From positions 2,157-66,156 of the forward strand of contig JBAZRE010000003.1 in the NCBI GenBank assembly GCA_041663025.1: a DNA stretch of 64,000 nucleotides, read 5' to 3'. Below the pieces are notes generated by a model, which did no database searches, was not told where the DNA came from, and saw only the letters and a program-made list of their open reading frames with translations. The number at the start of each line of letters is the position of its first letter. Positions within the stretch are counted from its first letter, which is position 1. Source of the DNA: Minisyncoccota bacterium. GTDB taxonomy: Bacteria > Patescibacteriota > Minisyncoccia > Phycocordibacterales > Phycocordibacteraceae. The translations under genes were made by a program, and so were the position numbers. This document shows positions 8,766-45,126 of this stretch, one piece after another.

Positions 8766-10000
8766 TGCTCCTGCCTGCTGCCAACTAGCTTTTCAAGTTC
8801 CTCGCGGACAACATCGGCATCGCTCCAAGGTATTCTCGTGCCGCGCGCACTCATGATGAACGGGTCTGTGCCCTTGCCTGTGATGAGGACAGCATCGCCA
8901 GGGAGCGCGGCGCGGAGCGCCGCACGTATCGCTTCGCGGCGATCCATGATGATCTCAGGCGGGCGTGTCATACCGCCAGCCATTTCATCAACAATCTTTT
9001 TAGGATCTTCGTCATACGGGTCTTCGTTGGTGAGAATAACTTTTCCGCATGATTCATCGGCAATGCGACCCATCTCCGGTCGCTTCCAGGTGTCACGTCC
9101 GCCGCCGGTGTTGCCCAGCACACAGATTTTTCTATGTTTTTGAAATGCATCATATAGTGCGCGAAGCGAATCTGGTGTGTGCGCATAATCAACAATAGCG
9201 ATGAAATTTTGCCCTGCCTCAATGCGTTCGGCGCGACCACCGATGCGCAAGAGCCCAGCCAGTGCCTCTGCACAGGTCTCAAGCGGCACACCGAGCGCCT
9301 CGGCAGTCTTTAATGCTGCAAGTGCATTCATAAGGCTGAAATTTCCCGGTTGCTTGATCGAAAAATGGACGCCTTTATATGAGAAAGAGACACCATCTTC
9401 ACTTACCCGAGCATCTCCTGCATCGGCAAAAGAAAATGGGATTCTTTTTTCTACATCGAGTGCGAGAAATGCCGCACCATACGCATCATCTGCATTTGCA
9501 ACAATAGTGCGCGGACGCTTTGACGAGTGCACGAGTGCTTGGCCAATTCTAAATTTCGCATTGAAATATTTCTCCATAGAACCATGTGATTCTAAATGTT
9601 CTTTTTGGAGATTTGTGAAAATAAGCGCATCAAGCTCAAGACCGAGGTGTCGATATTGCAGGGCGGCTTCACTTGTAATCTCAATAATGGCATGGGTGCA
9701 TCCTTTACCTCTCGCCTCGGCAAGAAACTTCTGAATGAAGCCGCGTCCTGGCAGCGTCATCTTGAAGAGGTTTGGTCGAGAATCTTTTCCTGTTGCGAAA
9801 CGAATGGTGCTGGCAAGAGCTGTCTCATGGCCCGCCGCCGTGAGGATGGTGTGGAGCATCTCTGCAACTGAAGATTTGCCCTTCGTCCCTGTCACGCCGA
9901 TGACGGTGAATTTTTTTGCAGGGAAACCATGTCTGAGTGCGGCCGATGCCGCAAAAGCGTAGTGATAGGGCGTGAGAAGTGTTCGCCGCAGATGCATCAT
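8762..10000 (-). CDS. murE: Mur ligase family protein (MurE-like UDP-MurNAc-tripeptide synthetase, short N-terminus)
   Basis: 412 aa. P-loop VIGVTGTKGKSS, DYAHTPDSL (MurE signature DYAHxPD), and a C-terminal Mur ligase domain. Confidence 0.75.
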   Translation of the reverse strand: MMHLRRTLLTPYHYAFAASAALRHGFPAKKFTVIGVTGTKGKSSVAEMLHTILTAAGHETALASTIRFATGKDSRPNLFKMTLPGRGFIQKFLAEARGKGCTHAIIEITSEAALQYRHLGLELDALIFTNLQKEHLESHGSMEKYFNAKFRIGQALVHSSKRPRTIVANADDAYGAAFLALDVEKRIPFSFADAGDARVSEDGVSFSYKGVHFSIKQPGNFSLMNALAALKTAEALGVPLETCAEALAGLLRIGGRAERIEAGQNFIAIVDYAHTPDSLRALYDAFQKHRKICVLGNTGGGRDTWKRPEMGRIADESCGKVILTNEDPYDEDPKKIVDEMAGGMTRPPEIIMDRREAIRAALRAALPGDAVLITGKGTDPFIMSARGTRIPWSDADVVREELEKLVGSRQEQ

Positions 10001-10542
10001 GAGTGAGAAGAGAGCGCTGCCTTTAATCGCACGTCTTTGCCGACAGCATCATCGGGGATTGCCTGGAGTGCTTTGCGCGCCTCGCGTTCGGTGTAGCCGA
10101 GCGCGACGAGGGTATCAAAGACTTCATTGTCGGCATTGTCATGCGAGCGTGGGCCAACTTTTTCAGCGAGCTCCACCAACATTTTCTCTGCGCTTTTCTT
10201 GCCGAGCCCGACAATCTTAGTGAGATAATTAAGGTCGCGCTTGCTAATAGCACCCTCAAGCGCCTCGCGCGGCGCTCGGCGCAACACCGAGAGTGCCGTT
10301 TTGGGGCCCACACCAGAAACCGAAAGTATGAGTTCAAAAAAGTCTCTATCAGCTGCGTCTATGAACCCATAGAGATCCACACCGTCTTGTTTGATGGTGA
10401 GGTGGGTCGCGAGAGTCGCTTCACTCCCCACCAAGAGCGCCTCGGGAGCATTCATGCGCACCTCAACCCCCAGCCCCGCGACCTCAACAATCGCGCTGGC
10501 CGGACTTATAGAGAGCACCTTCCCGCGTATCTGCCGAATCAT
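9997..10542 (-). CDS. ruvA: Holliday junction DNA helicase subunit RuvA
   Basis: 181 aa. N-terminal OB domain (MIRQIRGKVLSISPASAIVEVAGLGVEV), helix-hairpin-helix pairs, and a C-terminal RuvB-interaction domain. Confidence 0.85.
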   Translation of the reverse strand: MIRQIRGKVLSISPASAIVEVAGLGVEVRMNAPEALLVGSEATLATHLTIKQDGVDLYGFIDAADRDFFELILSVSGVGPKTALSVLRRAPREALEGAISKRDLNYLTKIVGLGKKSAEKMLVELAEKVGPRSHDNADNEVFDTLVALGYTEREARKALQAIPDDAVGKDVRLKAALSSHS

Positions 10543-10591
10543 GTGTTCATCTTATCACCCACGTTGACTTTCTGGAGAATTACTGGGCTAC

Positions 10592-10619
10592 TTGACAAAA
10601 TAGCCGAGTCGTGTATACT
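10592..10619 (+). promoter_or_regulatory. Sigma70-like promoter (TTGACA-N16-TATACT) reading toward DGR-1 target gene
   Basis: TTGACA at 10592-10597 and TATACT at 10614-10619 in the ruvA/target divergent intergenic region, about 160 nt upstream of the 10779 start. Confidence 0.5.
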
Positions 10620-10778
10620 AGTAGATAGTAAGTTCTTTGACACTAATTTGCGAGTGGTCATAGCCAAAAGACGCTGTAAATACGGCCTTTTCTGGCTATG
10701 ACCACAGACGGCCATAGTTCCACCTCGGAGGAGAGGACAATTCTAATGGGCGAATAAGCCCAACGAAAGGAGAACAAA

Positions 10779-11375
10779 ATGGACTTTGCATCGAAAAACC
10801 TTACGGCTGGTCAGTTAAACGCAATCGTGAAAAAACTCGGCGGTGAAGAAATGGCTTTACGATTTCTTCGTGATGAGCTTACGGTTTCTGAACCGATTGC
10901 GAAAAAACTTCTCAACTTTGTCACCACGACCAACGTTTCCGAAGTCACCTCGTTCATCGTCAAGGACAAATTCCGCGAAGGTAAGACGACCGACGGCGTG
11001 AAAATCGCATGGCTTGGTTCCAACTTCAAAGAAAACTTCCTTGGCAAAACGGAACGGGGTATCGCTTCGGCGACACTTCGTATCCAGAAGCTAACGAAAG
11101 ACTCTTTGGACGCCCCGATTCTGACAGAACTTGGCGATACGGCGGAAACGACACTTGCACAACTCTGGGAACTGATGAAGCTGCAGGGCTCCGGCCAAGA
11201 AGGAAAACTCCTCGTTAACGGTTGGGCGAATATCGTCTATATCCGCGACAAGAACGAAAACCTCTGGGCCGTGTACGCGCGCTGGAGCTCCGGCAGCGAC
11301 GGGTGGGTCGTTGGAGCCTATTCGGTCGAGAGCCCGGGTAGGTGGGGTGCCGACTTTCAGGTCGTCTCCCGCTGA
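10779..11375 (+). CDS. DGR-1 target (variable) protein; C-terminal 37 aa encoded by the variable repeat
   Basis: 198 aa with no signal peptide. The C-terminus ...LWAVYARWSSGSDGWVVGAYSVESPGRWGADFQVVSR is encoded by VR1, which matches TR1 except at TR adenines. Confidence 0.8.
   Translation: MDFASKNLTAGQLNAIVKKLGGEEMALRFLRDELTVSEPIAKKLLNFVTTTNVSEVTSFIVKDKFREGKTTDGVKIAWLGSNFKENFLGKTERGIASATLRIQKLTKDSLDAPILTELGDTAETTLAQLWELMKLQGSGQEGKLLVNGWANIVYIRDKNENLWAVYARWSSGSDGWVVGAYSVESPGRWGADFQVVSR
11262..11374 (+). repeat. DGR-1 variable repeat (VR1), 113 bp
   Basis: Aligns base-for-base with TR1 (11688-11800). I count 17 mismatches, and every one is A in TR1 versus T, G or C in VR1. Confidence 0.9.
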
Positions 11376-11405
11376 TTCTTTTCAACTCTGATCTTTTTGA
11401 ACCTT

Positions 11406-11456
11406 AGACCCTTTGAATCTTTGCCATTTTGGCATTGAAACGAAGGGTCTTTTGTT
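11406..11456 (+). terminator. Intrinsic terminator after DGR-1 target gene
   Basis: agaccctt...gccattttggc...aagggtct nested hairpin followed by TTTTGTT. Confidence 0.55.
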
Positions 11457-11687
11457 ATAATAAAAACAAGGATGTCTTGGGTGCGGCGAGCATGCTCTTC
11501 GCACAGCGCCTTGGGAAATCAGTACTCCAGAATTGTGTCGAGCATGCTCGCCATGAGCGCGGGTACGATTGTCCAAAAAAAGATTAGAATCGGTGTGCGA
11601 TGTTGGTGGACTTTGATGTCCCGAATCAGGTACAACCTTGAGAGTATTCAAGAGGTGGTGGTATGGATGGCATCACACACAAACGTG

Positions 11688-11800
11688 CTCTGGGCCGTGA
11701 ACGCGAACTGGAACTCCGGCAACGACGGGTGGAACGTTGAAGCCAATTCGGTCGAGAACCCGAATAGGTGGAGTGCCGACAATCAGGTCGTCTCCCGCAA
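11688..11800 (+). repeat. DGR-1 template repeat (TR1), 113 bp
   Basis: Asn-codon (AAC) rich copy of VR1. Reading frame LWAVNANWNSGNDGWNVEANSVENPNRWSADNQVVSR. Followed by a hairpin plus T-run at 11812-11840. Confidence 0.9.
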
Positions 11801-12208
11801 CTCTCGTCTTTTCCCGTCTCCACTTGGAGGCGGGTTTTTCGCTATAATACCTCTCTTCCATCCACCGACCATGCGTCCTATTTCTTCAACATCTTTCCCG
11901 AGTGATATAAAATGGCTCTGCGCCATGAGTCCTGATTCCCACGCGATTTGGATAAAGAAGCGAACAGCATCAACAGCACGAATTGCTTCTTCAAGTGGGG
12001 GCAATTTTTGGTCGATCGATGCGTATGCGGTTTTACGTAGTGCGTCTAATAAGTTAAGCCAGAGCTTGTCGATCCGGTCACCAATACCGAAGCGCTCTGA
12101 ACGCGCCATTTTCCGATGAGCGACGAGCCAAATTTTGTAAGCGACTTTAGCTCGCTCAATCACCGGCAAAAGCTTCTGGGGGGGGGTTACTTCTAGGAAG
12201 AAATTCAC
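11783..12208 (-). CDS. avd: Avd-like accessory variability determinant (four-helix-bundle protein, 23S rRNA IVS protein family)
   Basis: 141 aa with heptad-rich helical pattern FGIGDRIDKLWLNLLDALRK...EEIGRMVGGWKRG resembling phage BPP-1 Avd and PF05635 proteins. It lies between TR1 and the RT but on the opposite strand. Its N-terminus overlaps the poly-G tract as poly-Pro. Confidence 0.7.
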   Translation of the reverse strand: MNFFLEVTPPQKLLPVIERAKVAYKIWLVAHRKMARSERFGIGDRIDKLWLNLLDALRKTAYASIDQKLPPLEEAIRAVDAVRFFIQIAWESGLMAQSHFISLGKDVEEIGRMVGGWKRGIIAKNPPPSGDGKRRELRETT

Positions 12209-13187
12209 TCATACGTATGAGAGTATCATTTCGGTTGAAAATATTCTCGGCGCGTGGCGAGAATTTATAAAAGGGAAGAGGAAACGTACTGACGTACAAG
12301 AATTTGAAAGATATTTGATGCATAACGTTTTAGAACTGCACCAAGAACTCGTGGCAGGCACCTATCAACATGGCGGCTATCACCATTTCAAGATCAGCGA
12401 CCCCAAGCCGCGCGACATTCATAAAGCGAGTGTGCGTGACCGACTGGTACACCACGCTCTTTATCGTCAACTCTATCCATTTTTTGACAAAACGTTCATC
12501 AGCGATTCGTATTCATGCCGAAGAGAGAAGGGGACACATAAGGCGATGAACCGCTTCAGAGCCTTTGCGCGCAAGGTTTCTAAAAATAATACGCGCACCT
12601 GTTGGGTGTTGAAGTGCGATATCAGAAAATTCTTCGCATCTATCGATCAAGCCAAACTCATACAGATTCTTAAACAGCGAATATCAGACGAACGCATTGT
12701 CCAGCTTGTTGAGAAAGTCATCACGAGTTTCTCAAGTACTGAAAAAGGGAAGGGTCTACCACTCGGGAACCTCACCTCACAACTCCTCGTAAACATCTAT
12801 ATGAACAAGTTTGATCAGTTTGTTAAACATGAGCTAAAAGCAAAGCATTATATTCGCTACGCTGATGACTTTGTATTTTTATCATCCGACCGTTCATTTC
12901 TTACCTCACTTTTGCCCCTTATTCATAATTTTCTACATGACCATCTCGCTCTTGAGTTACATCCAGGTAAGGTCTCTATCAACACGCTTGCATCCGGCAT
13001 TGATTTCCTCGGCTGGGTGCATTTTCCAGACCATCGCGTTTTACGCACCTCTACCAAAAAGCGGATGTTCCGGCGTATTATAGAAACGAAAAGTAGGAAA
13101 GAAACAGTGCAGTCATATCTCGGCCTCTTGAGTCATGGCAACACACATAAACTGCAATCAGTTGCATTTTCTGACTACAACCTATAA
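12150..13187 (+). CDS. DGR reverse transcriptase (copy 1). Track ORF starts at TTG 12315, but the conserved RT N-terminus is in frame from 12150 with no ATG/GTG/TTG
   Basis: LPLGNLTSQLLVNIY is the DGR-specific [IVL]GxxxSQ motif (replacing QGxxxSP). RYADDFVF is the YxDD active site. Upstream in-frame codons encode ...KKFTHTYESIISVENILGAWREFIKGKRKRTDVQEFERYL, the conserved N-terminal extension of DGR RTs. Confidence 0.85.
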   Translation, partial: ARSITGKSFWGGVTSRKKFTHTYESIISVENILGAWREFIKGKRKRTDVQEFERYLMHNVLELHQELVAGTYQHGGYHHFKISDPKPRDIHKASVRDRLVHHALYRQLYPFFDKTFISDSYSCRREKGTHKAMNRFRAFARKVSKNNTRTCWVLKCDIRKFFASIDQAKLIQILKQRISDERIVQLVEKVITSFSSTEKGKGLPLGNLTSQLLVNIYMNKFDQFVKHELKAKHYIRYADDFVFLSSDRSFLTSLLPLIHNFLHDHLALELHPGKVSINTLASGIDFLGWVHFPDHRVLRTSTKKRMFRRIIETKSRKETVQSYLGLLSHGNTHKLQSVAFSDYNL

Positions 13188-13210: not shown

Positions 13211-13477
13211 ATGGCAATTACCAGTTCAGCAAAGAAGGCGATCCGCTCCTCGGGGCGGAAGCATGTCTTTAACCTGCGTCGCAAGGGGGCGCTTCATGAC
13301 ACGACTAAGTCGTTCACCAAAGCGCTTGCTGCCAAGGATGTGAAGGGTGCAGAAAAGCTCCTCCCCGCAGCCTATAAGGCAATCGACAAGGCCTGCAAGA
13401 GTGGGATCATCAAGAGCAACACCGCAGATCGCAAGAAGGCGCGTCTCGCCGCCTCAATCAAACGCGCACAAGCGTAA
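13211..13477 (+). CDS. rpsT: 30S ribosomal protein S20
   Basis: 88 aa. MAITSSAKKAIRSSGRKHVFNLRRK...KARLAASIKRAQA is the typical S20 basic helical protein. Confidence 0.85.
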   Translation: MAITSSAKKAIRSSGRKHVFNLRRKGALHDTTKSFTKALAAKDVKGAEKLLPAAYKAIDKACKSGIIKSNTADRKKARLAASIKRAQA

Positions 13478-13487
13478 ACTCAAAAAG

Positions 13488-13559
13488 TGCCCTCGACAGG
13501 AATCGAACCTGTACCACCTCCTTCGGAGGGAGATATTGTATCCATTCAACTACGAGGGC
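13488..13559 (-). tRNA. tRNA-Arg (anticodon CCG)
   Basis: Reverse complement GCCCTCGTAGTTGAATGGATACAATATCTCCCTCCGAAGGAGGTGGTACAGGTTCGATTCCTGTCGAGGGCA. Anticodon stem TCTCC/GGAGG with loop CTCCGAA. Confidence 0.8.
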
Positions 13560-13757: not shown

Positions 13758-13805
13758 GCACAGAAATAGAAAACACCGCGCAGGCGGTGTTTTCTATTTC
13801 TGTGC
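13758..13805. terminator. Perfect 22 bp-stem hairpin abutting the 3' end of tRNA-Arg(GCG); likely terminator or processing signal
   Basis: gcacagaaatagaaaacaccgc / gcag / gcggtgttttctatttctgtgc. The last 3 nt are the tRNA 3' end. Confidence 0.5.
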
Positions 13806-13875
13806 CCCCACGAGGAATCGAACCTCGATTACGACCTCCGCAAGGTCGCGTCCTGATCCGTTGAACGACAGGGGC
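13803..13875 (-). tRNA. tRNA-Arg with anticodon read as GCG (unusual isoacceptor, tentative)
   Basis: Reverse complement GCCCCTGTCGTTCAACGGATCAGGACGCGACCTTGCGGAGGTCGTAATCGAGGTTCGATTCCTCGTGGGGGCA. Anticodon stem CGACC/GGTCG with loop TTGCGGA. T-arm CGAGG/CCTCG. Acceptor has two G-U pairs. Confidence 0.6.
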
Positions 13876-13880
13876 GGTAT

Positions 13881-14288
13881 TTACTCTTCGTACTTCTGTG
13901 CAATCTGTTGTCCGAGTGAGAGAAGCTCTCTTAGTATCGAACTACCGGAATAGACGATAGAACAGATGCCTCGAAAGTTTTTCCGAAAACGCTTCAGCAC
14001 ACTTCGCTTTTTAACATAGATTTTACCAAATTGCGACTCTGGTACCCCGAGAAGCTTTGACCAGAAGGCAATTGATTCACGATGTTTATGATAATAATGG
14101 AGGTGTAAACGGACACGGATCTTACTTTCATCTAATGAATACGATGATCGTAGGAGTGTTAAATATAATTTTGCCAACGCAGGATCCGTATTTACGAACT
14201 TCATTTGAGCTTTTGCTCCCTCTGCCCAGTACAACATGGCAAGGAGCGATTTTTGGACGTTTTTATCCTTGATTGGTAACCGTATCAA
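13881..14288 (-). CDS. Putative single-motif LAGLIDADG-family homing endonuclease; ends 5 nt upstream of tRNA-Arg(GCG)
   Basis: 135 aa. SLLAMLYWAEGAK resembles the LAG(L/F)(I/V)DGEG motif. Basic C-terminal region KIYVKKRSVLKRFRKNFRG is typical of DNA-binding endonuclease tails. Assignment is weak. Confidence 0.4.
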   Translation of the reverse strand: MIRLPIKDKNVQKSLLAMLYWAEGAKAQMKFVNTDPALAKLYLTLLRSSYSLDESKIRVRLHLHYYHKHRESIAFWSKLLGVPESQFGKIYVKKRSVLKRFRKNFRGICSIVYSGSSILRELLSLGQQIAQKYEE

Positions 14289-14343: not shown

Positions 14344-14817
14344 TTAGAATCCGAGCCAGGCCGCCACTAGATCGATGAAAGAGTGTGTGTGTTCGCTTTC
14401 CTCAACGTGTTGGATGAAGTGCAGATATACCGACTCAGCATCGACCCCTTCAAGTGGGATGACGAGATGCGGCGAAAACCACGTCTCATTCTTGATAGAG
14501 AGCAGGGGCGGCAATTCGCCCTCGATATCTTCAAGGATCGAAAAGGAGATCATATGGTCAAAGGAGTGGAGATCATCTCCAATAAACAATCCCTGCTCAA
14601 CGAGGCGAAAGCGGTGCAGGGGCGGCTGTTTAGCCGCATGGAGTGCGATGGTGGCAGCAGCAACGATGACCAAGAAGGCGAGCAGATAGTTGCCGAAGAG
14701 TATCGTCGCGATTGCTATCGCTGCAGCGATGATACCGAGTACCCAGTACCAATCAGCACTCTTCGGCACATGGTCGTATTCTCTCCCTTCCCATTCTACG
14801 AGTGCGGTGCGGGGCAT
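14344..14817 (-). CDS. Hypothetical membrane protein (2 predicted TM helices)
   Basis: 157 aa with hydrophobic segment WYWVLGIIAAAIAIATILFGNYLLAFLVIVAAATIAL. No recognisable motif. Confidence 0.4.
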   Translation of the reverse strand: MPRTALVEWEGREYDHVPKSADWYWVLGIIAAAIAIATILFGNYLLAFLVIVAAATIALHAAKQPPLHRFRLVEQGLFIGDDLHSFDHMISFSILEDIEGELPPLLSIKNETWFSPHLVIPLEGVDAESVYLHFIQHVEESEHTHSFIDLVAAWLGF

Positions 14818-41069: not shown

Positions 41070-42470
41070 ATGACTGACTCAAACTTGATGGAAAAAATAG
41101 TCTCGCTCTGCAAGCGTCGCGGATTCGTGTTTCCCTCATCTGACATATATGGAGGATTCGCTGGTGTGTATGACTTCGGTCCACTTGGCGTCGAACTCGA
41201 GAATAATCTCAAGGCACAGTGGTGGCGCAAGATGGTATATGAGCGAGACGATATTGTCGGGCTCGATTCGAGTATCTTCATGCATCCAAAGATTTGGGAG
41301 GCAAGTGGGCATACGAATGGATTTTCTGATCCTATGGCGGAGTGCAAAGATTGCAATACTCGCATCCGTGTCGATAAGGCGCTTGAATCCATCGGCATTA
41401 CTGCTGACGAGAAGATGAGCGAGAACGAGATAAACGATCTCTTTGATGCACATCGAAAAGAAATTGCTTGTGAGAAATGTGGAAATCACAATTTCTCGAA
41501 TGCGCGGAAATTTAATTTGCTCGTGCAATCAAATCTCGGTGACTTCACTGAGCAGGGTACCAATCCTTCGTATCTGCGCGGAGAAACATGCCAGGGTATT
41601 TATGTAAATTATAAAAACGTGCTTGATTCAAATCCGATGAAATTGCCGTTTGGCATCGCACAGATCGGGAAAGCATTTCGAAATGAGATATCACCGCGGC
41701 AATTCCTCTTCCGCACACGTGAGTTTGAGCAGATGGAAATGCAGTATTTCACGCGACCAGAACAGGAAATGGAGGAATATAAAAAACTAAAAGAATATCG
41801 TTGGAATGCAGTTCTAGATCTTGGTCTGCAAGAAAAGAATCTTCGCTGGAAACAGCATGAAAATCTCGTGTTTTATGCGAAGGACGCGTGGGACATCGAA
41901 TACGCATTCCCTTGGGGCTTTGATGAACTTGAGGGTGTTCATGCGCGTGGCGACTATGATCTCACACAGCATTCAAAAGGGAGTGGAAAGACACTTGATT
42001 ATTTTGACCAAGATACCAATGAGCGTTTCATCCCGCACATCATAGAATCTTCTGGAGGTGTTGGGCGCTTATTCCTCGCAGTGCTCACTGATGCATATCG
42101 CGAAGATGAGTTGGGTGGAGAGGTGCGCACCTATCTCGCGCTCGCGCCGAAGATCGCGCCGGTGAAGGCGATGGTCTCGCCGCTTTTGAAAAATAAACCA
42201 GAGCTCGTCGAGAAGGCGCGCGAGGTGCGCACGGAACTACAGAAAATTCATCCAGCCATCGCGTGGGACGACAACGGCAATATCGGCAAGCGTTATCGCC
42301 GTCAAGATGAGATCGGTACACCATTCTGCATCACAATCGACTTCGACACTTTGGGAGAAAACCCAGAATTAACAGACACTGTCACTCTGCGTCATCGCGA
42401 CACCGGCGAACAAGAACGTCTTACCATTTCTCAAATACTTGACAAGATAAAAGAAGCGTGTATACTTTAA
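41070..42470 (+). CDS. glyQS: Glycyl-tRNA synthetase (alpha2 dimeric type)
   Basis: 466 aa. Class II motifs, GlyRS-specific N-terminus (KRRGFVFPSSDIYGGFAGVYDFGPLG) and a C-terminal anticodon-binding domain. Confidence 0.9.
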   Translation: MTDSNLMEKIVSLCKRRGFVFPSSDIYGGFAGVYDFGPLGVELENNLKAQWWRKMVYERDDIVGLDSSIFMHPKIWEASGHTNGFSDPMAECKDCNTRIRVDKALESIGITADEKMSENEINDLFDAHRKEIACEKCGNHNFSNARKFNLLVQSNLGDFTEQGTNPSYLRGETCQGIYVNYKNVLDSNPMKLPFGIAQIGKAFRNEISPRQFLFRTREFEQMEMQYFTRPEQEMEEYKKLKEYRWNAVLDLGLQEKNLRWKQHENLVFYAKDAWDIEYAFPWGFDELEGVHARGDYDLTQHSKGSGKTLDYFDQDTNERFIPHIIESSGGVGRLFLAVLTDAYREDELGGEVRTYLALAPKIAPVKAMVSPLLKNKPELVEKAREVRTELQKIHPAIAWDDNGNIGKRYRRQDEIGTPFCITIDFDTLGENPELTDTVTLRHRDTGEQERLTISQILDKIKEACIL

Positions 42471-42553
42471 TATAGACAGTACGTTGAAAGGTGCAAGAGG
42501 AATAATCCGCTTGCAAGACATGCATGCCCTGAGAAAGGGAAAGGAGAGCGGAA

Positions 42554-43252
42554 ATGAAGAAAGACATGTTAGGTTCGATAGTACGCGCGGCAGTGGGTGT
42601 CCCTCAAAATCGGCTTGAAGTGCTCGCCAAAATCGCGAGTGCGATCGCAGAGGACAACCCGAATGGCAACGAGTGGTTCTCTCGTTTCGAGAATCTACTC
42701 AAAGAAGAGTTGTCTTCTAAAACGGCAGTCGTATTCGAGCGCAATGAATATGGCCACATCGTGTTCACGATCACAGGTCTCGATCTCACTGGCGCACAAG
42801 AGATTACACGGCTCACGGATGCAAAGTATCGCATCGGCGACTACGCTAAGCAGATGCTCACGAGCACGAAGCCCGATGGGTATGATGCGAAGCATAGACT
42901 CGTCGCGGGGCAGTCGTACATGATCGTTCTCATTCCTGGTAAGGAGATTGAGAACGACTCCGGCCGCACGACTGCAAATCTGCAGAAGCTCGGTGAAAAG
43001 CTCGGCTACGACAAACCGCTTGCCGGAATCGTCCAGCGCATTCGCGAGGCGGTCTCTGACAAACAGATGGAAGAAATGGGGTTCTGGTATATCGCCGGGC
43101 TTCATAATCCCATCACGGGTGCCGATGGCCGCCCGGGCGTGCTGGGTGCGGGTCGCGACGATGATGGTCGTTGGCTCTTCGGCTATTGGGGCATTCCCGA
43201 TGGTCATTGGGACGGCGATGGCGCGTTCGCCTTCGTCCTCCCTGCAAGTTAG
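42554..43252 (+). CDS. DGR-2 target (variable) protein; C-terminal ~45 aa encoded by VR2
   Basis: 232 aa with no signal peptide. C-terminus ...ADGRPGVLGAGRDDDGRWLFGYWGIPDGHWDGDGAFAFVLPAS is encoded by VR2. Confidence 0.8.
   Translation: MKKDMLGSIVRAAVGVPQNRLEVLAKIASAIAEDNPNGNEWFSRFENLLKEELSSKTAVVFERNEYGHIVFTITGLDLTGAQEITRLTDAKYRIGDYAKQMLTSTKPDGYDAKHRLVAGQSYMIVLIPGKEIENDSGRTTANLQKLGEKLGYDKPLAGIVQRIREAVSDKQMEEMGFWYIAGLHNPITGADGRPGVLGAGRDDDGRWLFGYWGIPDGHWDGDGAFAFVLPAS
43112..43247 (+). repeat. DGR-2 variable repeat (VR2), 136 bp
   Basis: Aligns with TR2 (43579-43714). I count 22 mismatches, and all are TR adenine to G/T/C in VR. Confidence 0.9.
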
Positions 43253-43302
43253 AACTTGTACCTTCGAATCTTAGGGCTTGCCCTTGGATTCTTAACTCTT
43301 AA

Positions 43303-43328
43303 TCCCGCACTTTAGTGCGGGATTTTGT
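43303..43328 (+). terminator. Intrinsic terminator after DGR-2 target gene
   Basis: cccgcac ttta gtgcggg followed by ATTTTGTT. Confidence 0.6.
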
Positions 43329-43578
43329 TATATTGAAAGAGGTAGTAGGTGAATACGCGGGCGATCACTAGAGCACTAGAGCAATCTTAGGTTTCTCGCT
43401 ACCGAGGCCAGTATCCGTACATTGAGAGCCTGTTAGATTACGGTTTAATAGGGGGGATGTATGCAGACACTTCAAAAATGAAGATACTTGGTGCGCTCGC
43501 TTGGTCCATTTCGATGGCAGATACGATTCAACTCGGAGAGTATTCTATGGGTGGTGGCATTGATGAGCGAGCGTACAA

Positions 43579-43714
43579 ATCACGGATGCCGATGGCAACC
43601 CGAACGTGCTGAATGCGAATCGCAACGATGATGGTCAATGGCTCAACAGCTATTGGGACAATCCCGATAATCATTGGAACGACAATGGCGCGTTCGCCTT
43701 CGTCCTCCCTGCAA
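43579..43714 (+). repeat. DGR-2 template repeat (TR2), 136 bp
   Basis: AAC-rich (ADGNPNVLNANRNDDGQWLNSYWDNPDNHWNDNGAFAFVLPA). Followed by hairpin ctcgctcgt...acgagcgag plus TTTTGTTTTG at 43726-43760. Confidence 0.9.
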
Positions 43715-43738
43715 CTCTCTTCATTTCTCGCTCGTACC

Positions 43739-44089
43739 TCACGGCACGAGCGAGTTTTGTTTTGTGAGCTGACCATTCCAACCGCCAAGCATCTTGCCGA
43801 TTTCTTCGAGCGGAATGGAGAGTGCAACATATTCTTTCGTCTCAAGCGATTTGGTCTCCCAGAGAATCAACAGAAATATTTTCAACGTTTCAAGCTTGCG
43901 TATGGCGAGCCGCACCCATGGTTGCTTCTCGGTTTTTGAGAGGAATGTTGCGCTCGCGACTGCCTCAATCAGTGTGACAAATTCTGCATCTATCTTGCCA
44001 CCGAGCGTATAGCGATGAGTCTTAGGGATTGTCTGATAAAATGTATACCATAGGATATACGCATGCTTAATTCTCTCCAAAACAGGCAA
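43739..44089 (-). CDS. avd: Avd-like accessory variability determinant (copy 2)
   Basis: 116 aa starting at TTG. IPKTHRYTLGGKIDAEFVTLIEA...EEIGKMLGGWNGQL matches avd1 and the BPP-1 Avd pattern. Antisense to TR2 and RT2. Confidence 0.7.
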   Translation of the reverse strand: MPVLERIKHAYILWYTFYQTIPKTHRYTLGGKIDAEFVTLIEAVASATFLSKTEKQPWVRLAIRKLETLKIFLLILWETKSLETKEYVALSIPLEEIGKMLGGWNGQLTKQNSLVP

Positions 44090-45126
44090 GAGCTTCTGGG
44101 GGGGGGGTTACTTCTAGGAAGAAATTCACTCATTCATCCGAGCATATCATTTCAGTTGAAAATTTACTCGGAGCGTGGCAAGAATTTATAAGGGGCAAAC
44201 GCAAACGTGATGACGTACAAGAATTCGAACGGTATTTGATGCACAATGTTTTAGAATTGCATCGCGAGCTTGCTGCTGGCACCTATAAACACGGCGGCTA
44301 CCATCACTTTAAGATCAGCGACCCGAAACCACGCGATATTCATAAAGCGAGCGTGCGAGATCGGCTCATTCATCACGCTCTCTATCGCCAACTTTATCCA
44401 TTCTTTGACCGTACATTCATACTAGACTCGTATTCGTGCCGCCTCAACAGAGGCACTCATCGGGCGATGAACCGCTTTCGAGCTTTCGCATATCAAGTAT
44501 CTAAAAACGACACGTGCACTTGCTGGGTTCTCAAATGCGATATACGAAAGTTCTTCGCTTCCATCGATCAAGAAATATTGATGGAGATTATTAGTACCTA
44601 TATATCAGATAAACGCATCTGTGTACTTATCCAAAATATCATCACCAGCTTCAACTCTTGTGCAACAAGGAAGGGTTTGCCACTCGGGAACCTTACCTCG
44701 CAACTGCTTGTGAATATCTATATGGGTGAATTTGACCAGTTTGTTAAACATAAACTAAAAGTGAAGTATTATATCCGCTACGCAGACGACTTTGTGATTC
44801 TTTCTGCTAACAAAAATTATTTGTTGCGAGTACTACCATATATGGAAGCATTTTTGCATGACCAACTAAAGCTCAGTCTGCATCCAGACAAAGTATTCAT
44901 AAGAACCCTTGCCTCAGGGATTGATTTTCTTGGTTGGATGCATCGCCCCAATTATCGCGTATTACGGACGGCAACCAAAAATAGGATGTTCCGCACGATC
45001 AAAAAGAGCGAAGGGAAGCCTGAAGTGCTGCACTCTTATCTTGGCATGTTGAGTCATGGAAACACACAGAGACTTCAAGAGAAAGCAATTTCTTTCGCAA
45101 ATATGCTAGGATGCCCGTATGGATAA
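44071..45126 (+). CDS. DGR reverse transcriptase (copy 2). Track ORF starts at TTG 44236; conserved N-terminal coding is in frame from 44071 without a canonical start
   Basis: LPLGNLTSQLLVNIY ([IVL]GxxxSQ) and RYADDFVIL. About 75% aa identity to RT1. Upstream in-frame ...KKFTHSSEHIISVENLLGAWQEFIRGKRKRDDVQEFERYL. Confidence 0.85.
   Translation, partial: FSPKQARASGGGVTSRKKFTHSSEHIISVENLLGAWQEFIRGKRKRDDVQEFERYLMHNVLELHRELAAGTYKHGGYHHFKISDPKPRDIHKASVRDRLIHHALYRQLYPFFDRTFILDSYSCRLNRGTHRAMNRFRAFAYQVSKNDTCTCWVLKCDIRKFFASIDQEILMEIISTYISDKRICVLIQNIITSFNSCATRKGLPLGNLTSQLLVNIYMGEFDQFVKHKLKVKYYIRYADDFVILSANKNYLLRVLPYMEAFLHDQLKLSLHPDKVFIRTLASGIDFLGWMHRPNYRVLRTATKNRMFRTIKKSEGKPEVLHSYLGMLSHGNTQRLQEKAISFANMLGCPYG

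Follow-up and report, generated by a model that had tools for sequence, protein, structure and literature searches.

A guanine tract shared by the antisense avd and reverse transcriptase reading frames of a Patescibacteria diversity-generating retroelement

Introduction

How can a mutagenic retroelement be intact when the two proteins expected to drive it cannot be read in frame? The question is raised by a diversity-generating retroelement (DGR), hereafter called cassette 1, at positions 10779-13187 of a 64,000-nucleotide stretch of DNA (the window) from a Minisyncoccota bacterium, a member of the Patescibacteria (GenBank assembly GCA_041663025.1, contig JBAZRE010000003.1). An earlier note on the window, made from its letters alone, had recognized here a target gene ending in a variable repeat (VR), a template repeat (TR), an antisense avd gene and a gene for a DGR-type reverse transcriptase (RT). 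The cassette 1 element is intact, yet both of these proteins are out of frame at a conserved repeat as assembled. That repeat is a run of nine guanines on the RT strand (G9; C9 on the avd strand) at 12178-12186, which lies inside the avd and RT reading frames both.

As a DGR, cassette 1 is ordinary: it is one more example in a well-catalogued Patescibacteria lineage, and one of two in the window. An avd gene on the opposite strand, a small target that lacks a signal peptide and a chromosomal site in the core genome are the published norm for Patescibacteria DGRs (PMC5758913, PMC8144416). Here we describe the element, the tract and the start regions of the two genes that cross it, and we weigh what the tract may do.

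Results

Identity of cassette 1

We are highly confident that cassette 1 is a genuine chromosomal DGR of Patescibacteria, which belong to the Candidate Phyla Radiation (CPR), with the layout target-VR, TR, antisense avd, RT; to this we attach proposals for how the TR is copied and how the tract may gate the process. The pairwise alignment that the earlier note had put forward as a check bears out its count. VR (11262-11374) and TR (11688-11800) align without gaps over 113 nucleotides (nt) with 17 mismatches, 17/17 at TR adenines (A>G 10, A>T 6 and A>C 1, from TR to VR). The last two mismatches (11799-11800 against 11373-11374) correspond to the TGA stop of the target gene. The similarity ends at that stop, so the safer repeat is a 111-nt core. 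In this core VR1 occupies 11262-11372 on the plus strand and forms the last 37 target codons; TR1 occupies 11688-11798 on the same strand, 426 nt downstream of the VR and in the same frame. All 15 mismatches in the core are at adenines, and the 85 positions at which TR has another base are identical (85/85). TR1 has 28 adenines in 113 nt, 26 of them in the 111-nt core, and the hypergeometric probability that every mismatch falls on an adenine is 5.7e-12 for the 111-nt repeat and 3.4e-13 for the 113-nt repeat. Differences confined to adenines in this way are the diagnostic DGR signature. That the other sites are all identical speaks for a recent last round of homing.

The mutated TR1 adenines are found exclusively at codon positions 1 or 2, and the reading frame of TR1 includes seven AAC and three AAT codons. 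The same positions vary between relatives: in 56 target homologues, VR columns that correspond to TR codons with an adenine at position 1 or 2 have an entropy of 2.74 bits, and the rest 0.94 bits. The VR ends in a GC-rich block of 15 nt, CAGGTCGTCTCCCGC (11358-11372, plus strand), which is identical in TR at 11784-11798; in the alignment the 3' flanks of VR and TR diverge directly past it. By analogy with the Bordetella phage DGR (PMC5758913), this block may act as the initiation of mutagenic homing (IMH) site. Further on, a terminator-like hairpin with a T-run follows the target gene (11406-11453, plus strand; the fold of 11376-11455 has -24.3 kcal/mol). An equivalent hairpin is also present 3' of VR2, the variable repeat of the second cassette, and of the VRs of relatives, and from its position and sequence the hairpin at 11406-11450 is a candidate equivalent of the post-IMH inverted repeat.

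The proteins fit the same assignment. The RT gene (12116-13187, plus strand, from its proposed start ATG 12116) contains conserved DGR-RT sequence at about 12204-13184, and a profile search finds an RVT_1 domain in its product, RT1. The best solved relative is bRT of the Bordetella phage DGR (8ub7; E 2.4e-51, bRT residues 10-302 aligned). A group II intron RT matches at E 8e-19, and group II intron and retron RTs are all at 1e-18 or weaker. Both motifs named in the earlier note are in place: LGNLTSQ (12762-12782, plus strand) fits DGR motif 4, [IVL]GxxxSQ, and YADD (12858-12869, plus strand) fits the catalytic YxDD. By its sequence, RT1 belongs with the DGR-clade RTs.

The avd gene (11783-12212, minus strand) lies antisense between TR and RT, as had been claimed; its conserved body begins at codon TTG 12169, its proposed start is ATG 12212-12210 and the GenBank-style call is GTG 12208. 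The product matches NCBIfam DivGenRetAVD at E 6e-14 (52 bits, curated cut-off 80), the first model position falling on residue 14 of the open reading frame (ORF) from GTG, and Pfam bAvd at E 9.7e-9, or about 1e-8 (36.1 bits, curated cut-off 40). The counterpart in the second cassette, avd2, clears the Pfam cut-off with 44.5 bits. Judged by sequence, the homology of avd1 to Avd is clear. There are no internal stops or frameshifts in RT or avd anywhere besides the tract, and the ratio of nonsynonymous to synonymous change (dN/dS) between RT1 and RT2 is 0.11 for the whole gene.

A guanine tract in two reading frames

The consequence of tract length for both genes was read from explicit translations computed at G7-G12. 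With G8 or G11, cassette 1 yields an RT of 356-357 amino acids (aa; 356 at G8) from ATG 12116 and an Avd of 142-143 aa from ATG 12212. With the observed G9 it yields an RT stub of 26 aa and an Avd stub of 18 aa. Cassette 2 has a counterpart tract, G10 at 44098-44107, in surroundings that are otherwise identical. With G8 or G11, its RT has 353-354 aa from ATG 44063 and its Avd 130-131 aa from ATG 44133; with the observed G10, the stubs are 42 aa for RT and 47 aa for Avd. As assembled, both window cassettes are out of frame from the ATG for RT and for avd, and are one base from an in-frame length. Both ORFs cross the tract in the same phase, so that one length change would switch both.

The tract is widely conserved among relatives. 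Scans with the RT recovered more than 530 relatives in species-representative genomes and more than 570 in metagenome contigs; the locus analyses reported here were made on the best 160 or so (L001-L163). The 160 best RT relatives are 65-79% identical to the RT, and their taxon-named records are mostly metagenome-assembled genomes of Patescibacteria. Of the 148 loci that could be inspected for it, 147 have a divergent antisense avd immediately ahead of RT. In 66 loci we identified VR/TR pairs arranged as in cassette 1, and of their 1153 mismatches 1070 are at TR adenines. At the avd/RT junction, 142 of 147 relatives carry G6-G13, with a modal length of 9-10. Four further loci have other repeats in place of the tract: (GT)n in L032 and L121, (CTGG)n in L078 and a 7-mer in L068. 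Only L054 has no repeat of any kind at this site.

Tract length also varies between close relatives. It is the sole difference in 8 of 22 locus pairs with identical 240-nt flanks, pairs that compare assemblies rather than members of one population and that include several concordant pairs which are apparently the same assembly in two collections. Similarly, L032 and L121 have unequal copy numbers of (GT)n, which is (CA)n on the other strand. Metagenome contigs were also scanned with the exact flanks of the cassette 1 tract for length variants of this locus, and none matched. The sole other contig with the same target protein is 100% identical, G9 included, and therefore carries no independent information on tract length.

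Two properties expected of a contingency locus are seen here. The repeat sits inside an ORF and changes its product (full length at G8 or G11, stubs at G9 or G10), and its length is polymorphic among otherwise identical sequences, a polymorphism seen between assemblies in which sequencing error is possible. We infer that a contingency switch is the simplest reading of the tract.

The 64-kb window contains only three G or C runs of at least 7 nt (1432-1439, 12178-12186 and 44098-44107) and no A or T run of at least 9 nt. The run outside the two cassettes is a G8 (C8 in the gene) that falls in codons 3-5 of a 333-aa minus-strand ORF at 445-1446 (ATG TCA ACC CCC CCC AAA), read as ruvB from its sequence. 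The start of this ruvB-like ORF may be a further slippage-prone region.

Start of avd

If the tract sets the frame of avd, translation has to begin upstream of it, and the sequence there carries the marks of a start. An extended -10 element, TGATACTCT (12220-12228, minus strand), lies 7 nt upstream of ATG 12212 and within RT codons 6-9. Across 112 loci the minus-strand profile reads TG-A-TA..cT, 7 nt, ATG, and it overlies RT codons (D/E)-x-I-I and His3. At the RT histidine codon antisense to the avd ATG, 112 loci use CAT and a single one CAC, whereas the other histidine codons of these RT genes divide 724:795 (p 5e-35). RT codon 7 ends in T in 108 of 112 loci, independent of the amino acid, and the Ile8 codon is ATC in 97 of 109. 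This bias at synonymous sites of RT indicates that the -10 element and the ATG of the antisense avd are selected. The arrangement predicts an avd mRNA that is leaderless and begins at ATG 12212, antisense to the RT histidine codon.

The frame that leads from this ATG to the tract is open in 106 of 107 loci. Moreover, the tract boundary keeps one codon phase in 91 of 142 loci across many spacer lengths (p 7e-14), and L054, which has no repeat, has its avd ATG in the frame of Avd. In 49 of 142 loci there is no canonical start in the stretch from the tract to Avd residue 4. We rejected the idea that termination of a leader ORF is coupled to re-initiation at the NTG of Avd: a stop lies near in 33 of 83 observed off-frames and in 32 of 84 alternative ones.

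Start of the reverse transcriptase gene

The conserved N-terminus of RT, at about 12204, has no canonical start, which corrects an earlier reading of the ORF. Past the stop at 12138, the RT frame offers no ATG, GTG or TTG until TTG 12315. The 43 codons before TTG 12315, the first canonical start, are nevertheless under purifying selection between the paralogues (dN/dS 0.17).

Relatives fall into two groups. In 79 of 142 loci RT has its own start past the tract, and in 23 of these 79 the order is exactly G-tract, TAnnnT, 7 nt, ATG; the RTs of these 23 loci look leaderless too. In the other 63 of 142, both window cassettes among them, a canonical RT start past the tract is missing. In 37 of 39 loci whose RT has no start of its own, an upstream ATG leads without a stop across the tract and into RT, in phase with the avd ATG. 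Both controls, the two remaining frames and the loci with an RT start of their own, give 19% (Fisher p 3.6e-15). In the sub-type of the L017 kind, 9 of 9 loci are co-phased.

We propose from this pattern that the RT of cassette 1 starts at ATG 12116, upstream of the tract, and would be in frame only at G8 or G11. The RT ATG is not supplied by a single conserved avd histidine codon: we found it at avd residue 6, 9, 13, 15 or 18, depending on the sub-clade. A leaderless -10 geometry is clear in the residue-15 and residue-6 sub-types, and none was seen before ATG 12116 in the sub-type of cassette 1. Another candidate, a start at ATG 12217 followed by a frameshift, was rejected, as that ATG is missing from cassette 2. 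Public gene calls on an identical contig place RT at ATG 12318 (289 aa) and avd at GTG 12208 (141 aa); both starts are probably workarounds of the gene caller.

A structured leader ahead of the template repeat

The TR appears from its sequence to be part of a discrete RNA of about 370 nt, organized like a transcription unit with its own -10 box, a leader of about 220 nt, the TR and its own terminator. The extended -10 box, TGTTATAAT (11453-11461, plus strand), is a conserved column in 63 loci, in most of which it stands 235-257 nt from the TR. A conserved structured leader follows at 11468-11687 (plus strand), for which RNAalifold, given 59 leaders, predicts 45 pairs; compensatory changes are seen in 39 of these.

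Its helices, all on the plus strand and all from RNAalifold, are H1 (11482-11490/11495-11503), H2 (11523-11526/11562-11565), H4 (11533-11542/11547-11556), H5 (11593-11604/11669-11680), H6 (11608-11611/11618-11621) and H7 (11635-11642/11649-11656). H5 is a long-range helix that closes a multi-helix domain ending 7 nt before the TR. When this structure is imposed on the alignment, 95.3% of cells are paired; shifting the partners by 1-3 columns lowers the share to 36-54%. Covariation scores 0.778, the comparison values being 0.12-0.20, and 0 of 500 shuffles reach the observed values. An Rfam search of both cassettes returned two tRNAs only and no family for the leader. By analogy, we infer that this 5' leader could be the scaffold recognized by RT and Avd, and so a functional analogue of the RNA that flanks the Bordetella TR.

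Past the TR, at a distance of 14 nt, a hairpin with a T-run resembles an intrinsic terminator (11813-11839, plus strand) and overlaps the 3' end of the convergent avd. It recurs in cassette 2; an automatic test found it in 40 of 63 loci, and most of the others show it by eye. The avd1 ORF extends through this hairpin and 16-18 nt into the TR (11783-11839), an overlap that gives Avd1 the C-terminal tail AKNPPPSGDGKRRELRETT; Avd2 has no such tail. As the TR RNA and avd converge on it, the hairpin may terminate transcription in both directions.

A plus-strand ORF of 215 aa in the target frame, 11472-12119, extends over the leader and the TR and on into the antisense of avd. It is a shadow of avd plus the in-frame TR and no gene, and a likely source of mis-annotation. 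An alternative genetic code (UGA read as glycine), considered for this ORF and for the TGA after the VR, was rejected because the neighbouring genes are complete in code 11 and the ORF is the antisense shadow of avd.

Target gene, genomic context and cassette 2

The target, or variable-protein, gene (10779-11375, plus strand) encodes 198 aa with a helical N-terminal part and a C-terminal part that resembles a C-type lectin. Structure prediction, which the earlier note had suggested for the C-terminus, gives a confident AlphaFold model (pLDDT 90.9, from an alignment of 56 homologues) in which the target models as a C-type-lectin fold with the VR at its C-terminus. The statement that the target has no signal peptide also holds: there is no hydrophobic N-terminus and no transmembrane-like (TM-like) stretch, the maximum Kyte-Doolittle mean over 19 residues being 0.83. 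The target matched no family in the Pfam and NCBIfam libraries; it has 324 homologues, and all of those with a named source are from Patescibacteria.

Upstream lies a promoter-like site (TTGACA, 16 nt, TATACT; 10592-10619, plus strand) that matches the consensus at 11 of 12 positions and would serve the target gene. The region around it, 10589-10640, is conserved with cassette 2 at 42436-42487. The 5' untranslated region (UTR) of the target (10620-10778, about 150 nt) contains a long near-perfect hairpin at 10654-10705 and folds as a whole with -54.7 kcal/mol. It has no Rfam match, and its sequence, unlike the promoter just upstream, is not conserved with the UTR of cassette 2.

Cassette 1 adjoins ruvA (9997-10542, minus strand) and rpsT (13211-13477), the flanks that the earlier note had named. 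The note had also taken the cassette to be inserted between these core genes, and a fresh insertion is not what the relatives suggest: the ruvA..rpsT context recurs in L002, L040 and L126, and the glyS..AI-2E-transporter context of cassette 2 in L003, L009, L017, L086, L091 and L099. Contexts that recur across Patescibacteria genomes in this way argue for long-term vertical inheritance. Just downstream of rpsT are two tRNA-Arg genes (13487-13559, and 13802-13875 on the minus strand; anticodons CCG and GCG), and beyond them hypothetical minus-strand ORFs at 13881-14288 and 14344-14817 without a Pfam match.

Cassette 2, a paralogous DGR, lies at 42436-45126 between glyS and the AI-2E transporter gene. 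Its target (42554-43252, 232 aa) has an N-terminal part unrelated to that of target 1, and VR2 (43112-43247) and TR2 (43579-43714) differ at 22 positions, all 22 of them adenines. A -10 box at 43329 is followed by the same structured leader (43341-43578). The avd2 gene spans 43739-44089 (to 44133 from the upstream ATG) and RT2 44063/44107-45126. RT1 and RT2 share about 75-82% identity in their DNA; the two Avd sequences have diverged strongly (dN 0.71).

Discussion

How the element may work

The proposed mechanism draws in its first part on the Bordetella phage DGR. An RT-Avd complex would bind the TR RNA and reverse-transcribe it, placing random nucleotides opposite its adenines. The resulting cDNA would then replace the VR up to its GC-rich, IMH-like end, and 16 codons on the surface of the lectin fold would be recoded.

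The second part concerns the tract. RT would be read from ATG 12116 and avd from the leaderless ATG 12212, so that the tract would lie between the two start codons, within an antisense overlap of ORFs that are mutually in phase. The tract itself would be read as poly-glycine on the RT strand and poly-proline on the avd strand. A slipped-strand change of its length would toggle RT and Avd together, and diversification would thereby go on and off in a subpopulation. That the G9 tract gates expression of the mutagenic machinery is a reading towards which we lean, with modest confidence, on the strength of the frames and start signals described above. A wider proposal, held tentatively and with somewhat less conviction than doubt, is that a large clade of Patescibacteria DGRs shares this design: antisense-overlapping, leaderless or near-leaderless RT and avd genes would be co-phased over a hypermutable tract, a phase-variable "mutator of the mutator" that would be off in most cells, both window cassettes included, and a hitherto unmodelled 5' structured RNA of about 220 nt would replace the 3' spacer of the Bordetella type.

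Several observations weigh against a DNA switch of this kind. In consensus assemblies the in-frame state is the rarest of the three: 23 of 107 loci (binomial p 0.005 against one third), with 45 loci one base too long and 39 one base too short. Selection for an in-frame tract length in consensus genomes was accordingly looked for and not found, the in-frame state being depleted. This depletion is compatible with elements that are mostly off, and equally with a frame that is irrelevant. Transcriptional slippage could make the frame of the DNA partly moot. At G9, GTG 12208 is in frame with Avd, and TTG is enriched at Avd residue 1 (60 of 122 leucine codons, against a background of 16%), so that some Avd may be made without any switch. 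No convincing promoter was found before ATG 12116 in the sub-type of cassette 1. Avd1 scores under both curated family cut-offs. Finally, short-read assemblies can miscall the length of homopolymers.

Alternative explanations

The strongest competitor moves the slippage from DNA to RNA. RNA-polymerase slippage or ribosomal frameshifting on a 9-13-nt G/C run would give a constant, low level of in-frame RT and Avd at any DNA length. Polymerase slippage on homopolymers becomes appreciable around 9-10 nt, the lengths at which the tracts are tightly clustered; consensus frames are near random without enrichment of the in-frame class (23, 45 and 39 loci), and both ORFs cross the tract. On the other side, the di-, tetra- and heptanucleotide replacements are typical of contingency loci that work by slipped strands in DNA and are a poor substrate for transcriptional slippage, and the number of tract or repeat units varies in the DNA between otherwise identical loci. 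We regard this explanation as unlikely, though it deserves to be taken seriously, and slippage at the RNA level and a DNA switch are not mutually exclusive and can coexist. Less probable still, and to be given only small weight, is that the tract is a promoter or spacer or a structural element (a G-quadruplex or an insulator) between divergent genes, with Avd starting at TTG 12169, RT at a non-canonical codon past the tract, and the frames irrelevant. The enrichment of NTG at Avd residue 1, where the NCBIfam Avd model also starts, speaks for such a spacer, as do the 23 loci in which the tract abuts a TAnnnT hexamer 7 nt before the RT ATG and the fact that the replacement repeats are all G-rich on the RT strand. 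Left unexplained by it are the 112:1 preference for CAT at the RT histidine codon, the 106 of 107 open frames from ATG to tract, the codon-phase bias of the tract boundary over varied spacer lengths, the co-phased upstream ATGs (95% against 19%) of RTs without their own start, and the in-frame ATG of the repeat-less L054. Its Avd start would also have to do without a canonical codon between tract and residue 4 in 49 of 142 loci.

Two further explanations question the element itself. Were cassette 1 a decaying, inactive DGR, RT and avd would be frameshifted pseudogenes and the VR/TR differences relics; both ATG-initiated ORFs do stop within 26 codons at the assembled length, and the RT N-terminus lacks a canonical start. 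Yet the dN/dS of 0.11 between RT1 and RT2 includes the region before the first canonical start, RT and avd have no stops or frameshifts elsewhere, and the non-adenine identity of VR and TR (85/85) argues for recent homing. The out-of-frame state, moreover, is found in about 80% of 107 independent relatives and never lies outside the repeat, a pattern that marks a switch and not random decay. We consider decay very improbable. That cassette 1 is no DGR at all, and its repeat a chance or duplication-derived direct repeat beside a retron, group II intron or defence RT, has a negligible probability in our judgement. NCBIfam does return matches to models of group II intron, Drt3a and retron RTs, but these are far under their cut-offs, and bRT is ahead of the other solved RTs by more than 30 orders of magnitude; in addition, the mismatches are at adenines only (p about 1e-12), the pattern is repeated in 66 related loci, and Avd is present.

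Relation to known systems

At the level of genes cassette 1 is closest to the DGRs of CPR architecture B3 (Wu et al. 2018, PMC5758913) and clade 2 (Roux et al. 2021, PMC8144416). Architecture B3, "TR-(avd)-RT", makes up 90% of CPR DGRs (PMC5758913), and clade 2 targets typically have no TM segment or known domain (PMC8144416). Cassette 1 shares with them the order and orientation of target-VR, TR, antisense avd and RT, the host lineage, the chromosomal site and a small target without TM segment or recognized domain; we see no anatomical difference at the gene level.

The DGR of Bordetella phage BPP-1 (mtd-VR, avd, TR, brt) has in common with cassette 1 the adenine-specific transfer from TR to VR, a C-terminal VR in a C-type-lectin fold, a GC-rich IMH-like 3' boundary and the pair of Avd and RT. 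By contrast, avd of cassette 1 is antisense and lies downstream of TR, the conserved structured RNA is 5' of TR and not, as in BPP-1, in a spacer on the 3' side that extends into the RT gene, and the TR RNA comes with a promoter-like box and a terminator of its own. Cassette 1 is also cellular and not phage-borne, and its target is no tail fibre. Treponema denticola TvpA and other DGR variable proteins of the formylglycine-generating enzyme/C-type-lectin (FGE/CLec) fold are likewise among the closest known systems.

For the tract the comparison is with contingency loci. In Neisseria, Haemophilus, Campylobacter and Bordetella these have poly-G/C or tetranucleotide repeats in the 5' ends of ORFs, or (TA)n between the divergent hifA and hifB promoters. 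Like them, the DGR tract is a 6-13-nt homopolymer a few codons into an ORF that has been swapped in evolution for di-, tetra- or heptanucleotide repeats; its length can be the sole difference between otherwise identical sequences, and by analogy it would control a divergent gene pair. Unlike them, a single tract in two antisense-overlapping ORFs sets both frames, and the switched product would be a mutagenesis machine and not a surface antigen.

A literature search, which did not cover the main survey of CPR DGRs, found no report of a poly-G or simple-sequence repeat tract, of overlapping divergent RT and avd starts or of a structured TR leader; a search for reports of homopolymers, phase variation or covariation in DGR avd or RT found nothing. 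We regard it as provisional that the proposed switch, the overlap of the two starts and the leader of the TR are new.

Implications

Automated annotation will mis-start or truncate the RT and avd genes of these elements, as the public calls for cassette 1 do, and activity will be misjudged in surveys that score "intact RT/avd". The leader, supported by covariation, can serve to locate TRs and to study how RT and Avd recognize their template in this architecture. Where the element could matter is in regulation, in how DGR mutagenesis is restrained and timed in cells, a question with few answers so far. A tract that sets the frame of both RT and Avd is a concrete and testable answer for hundreds of CPR elements: if it is true, one slipped-strand event would turn the whole mutagenic machinery on or off.

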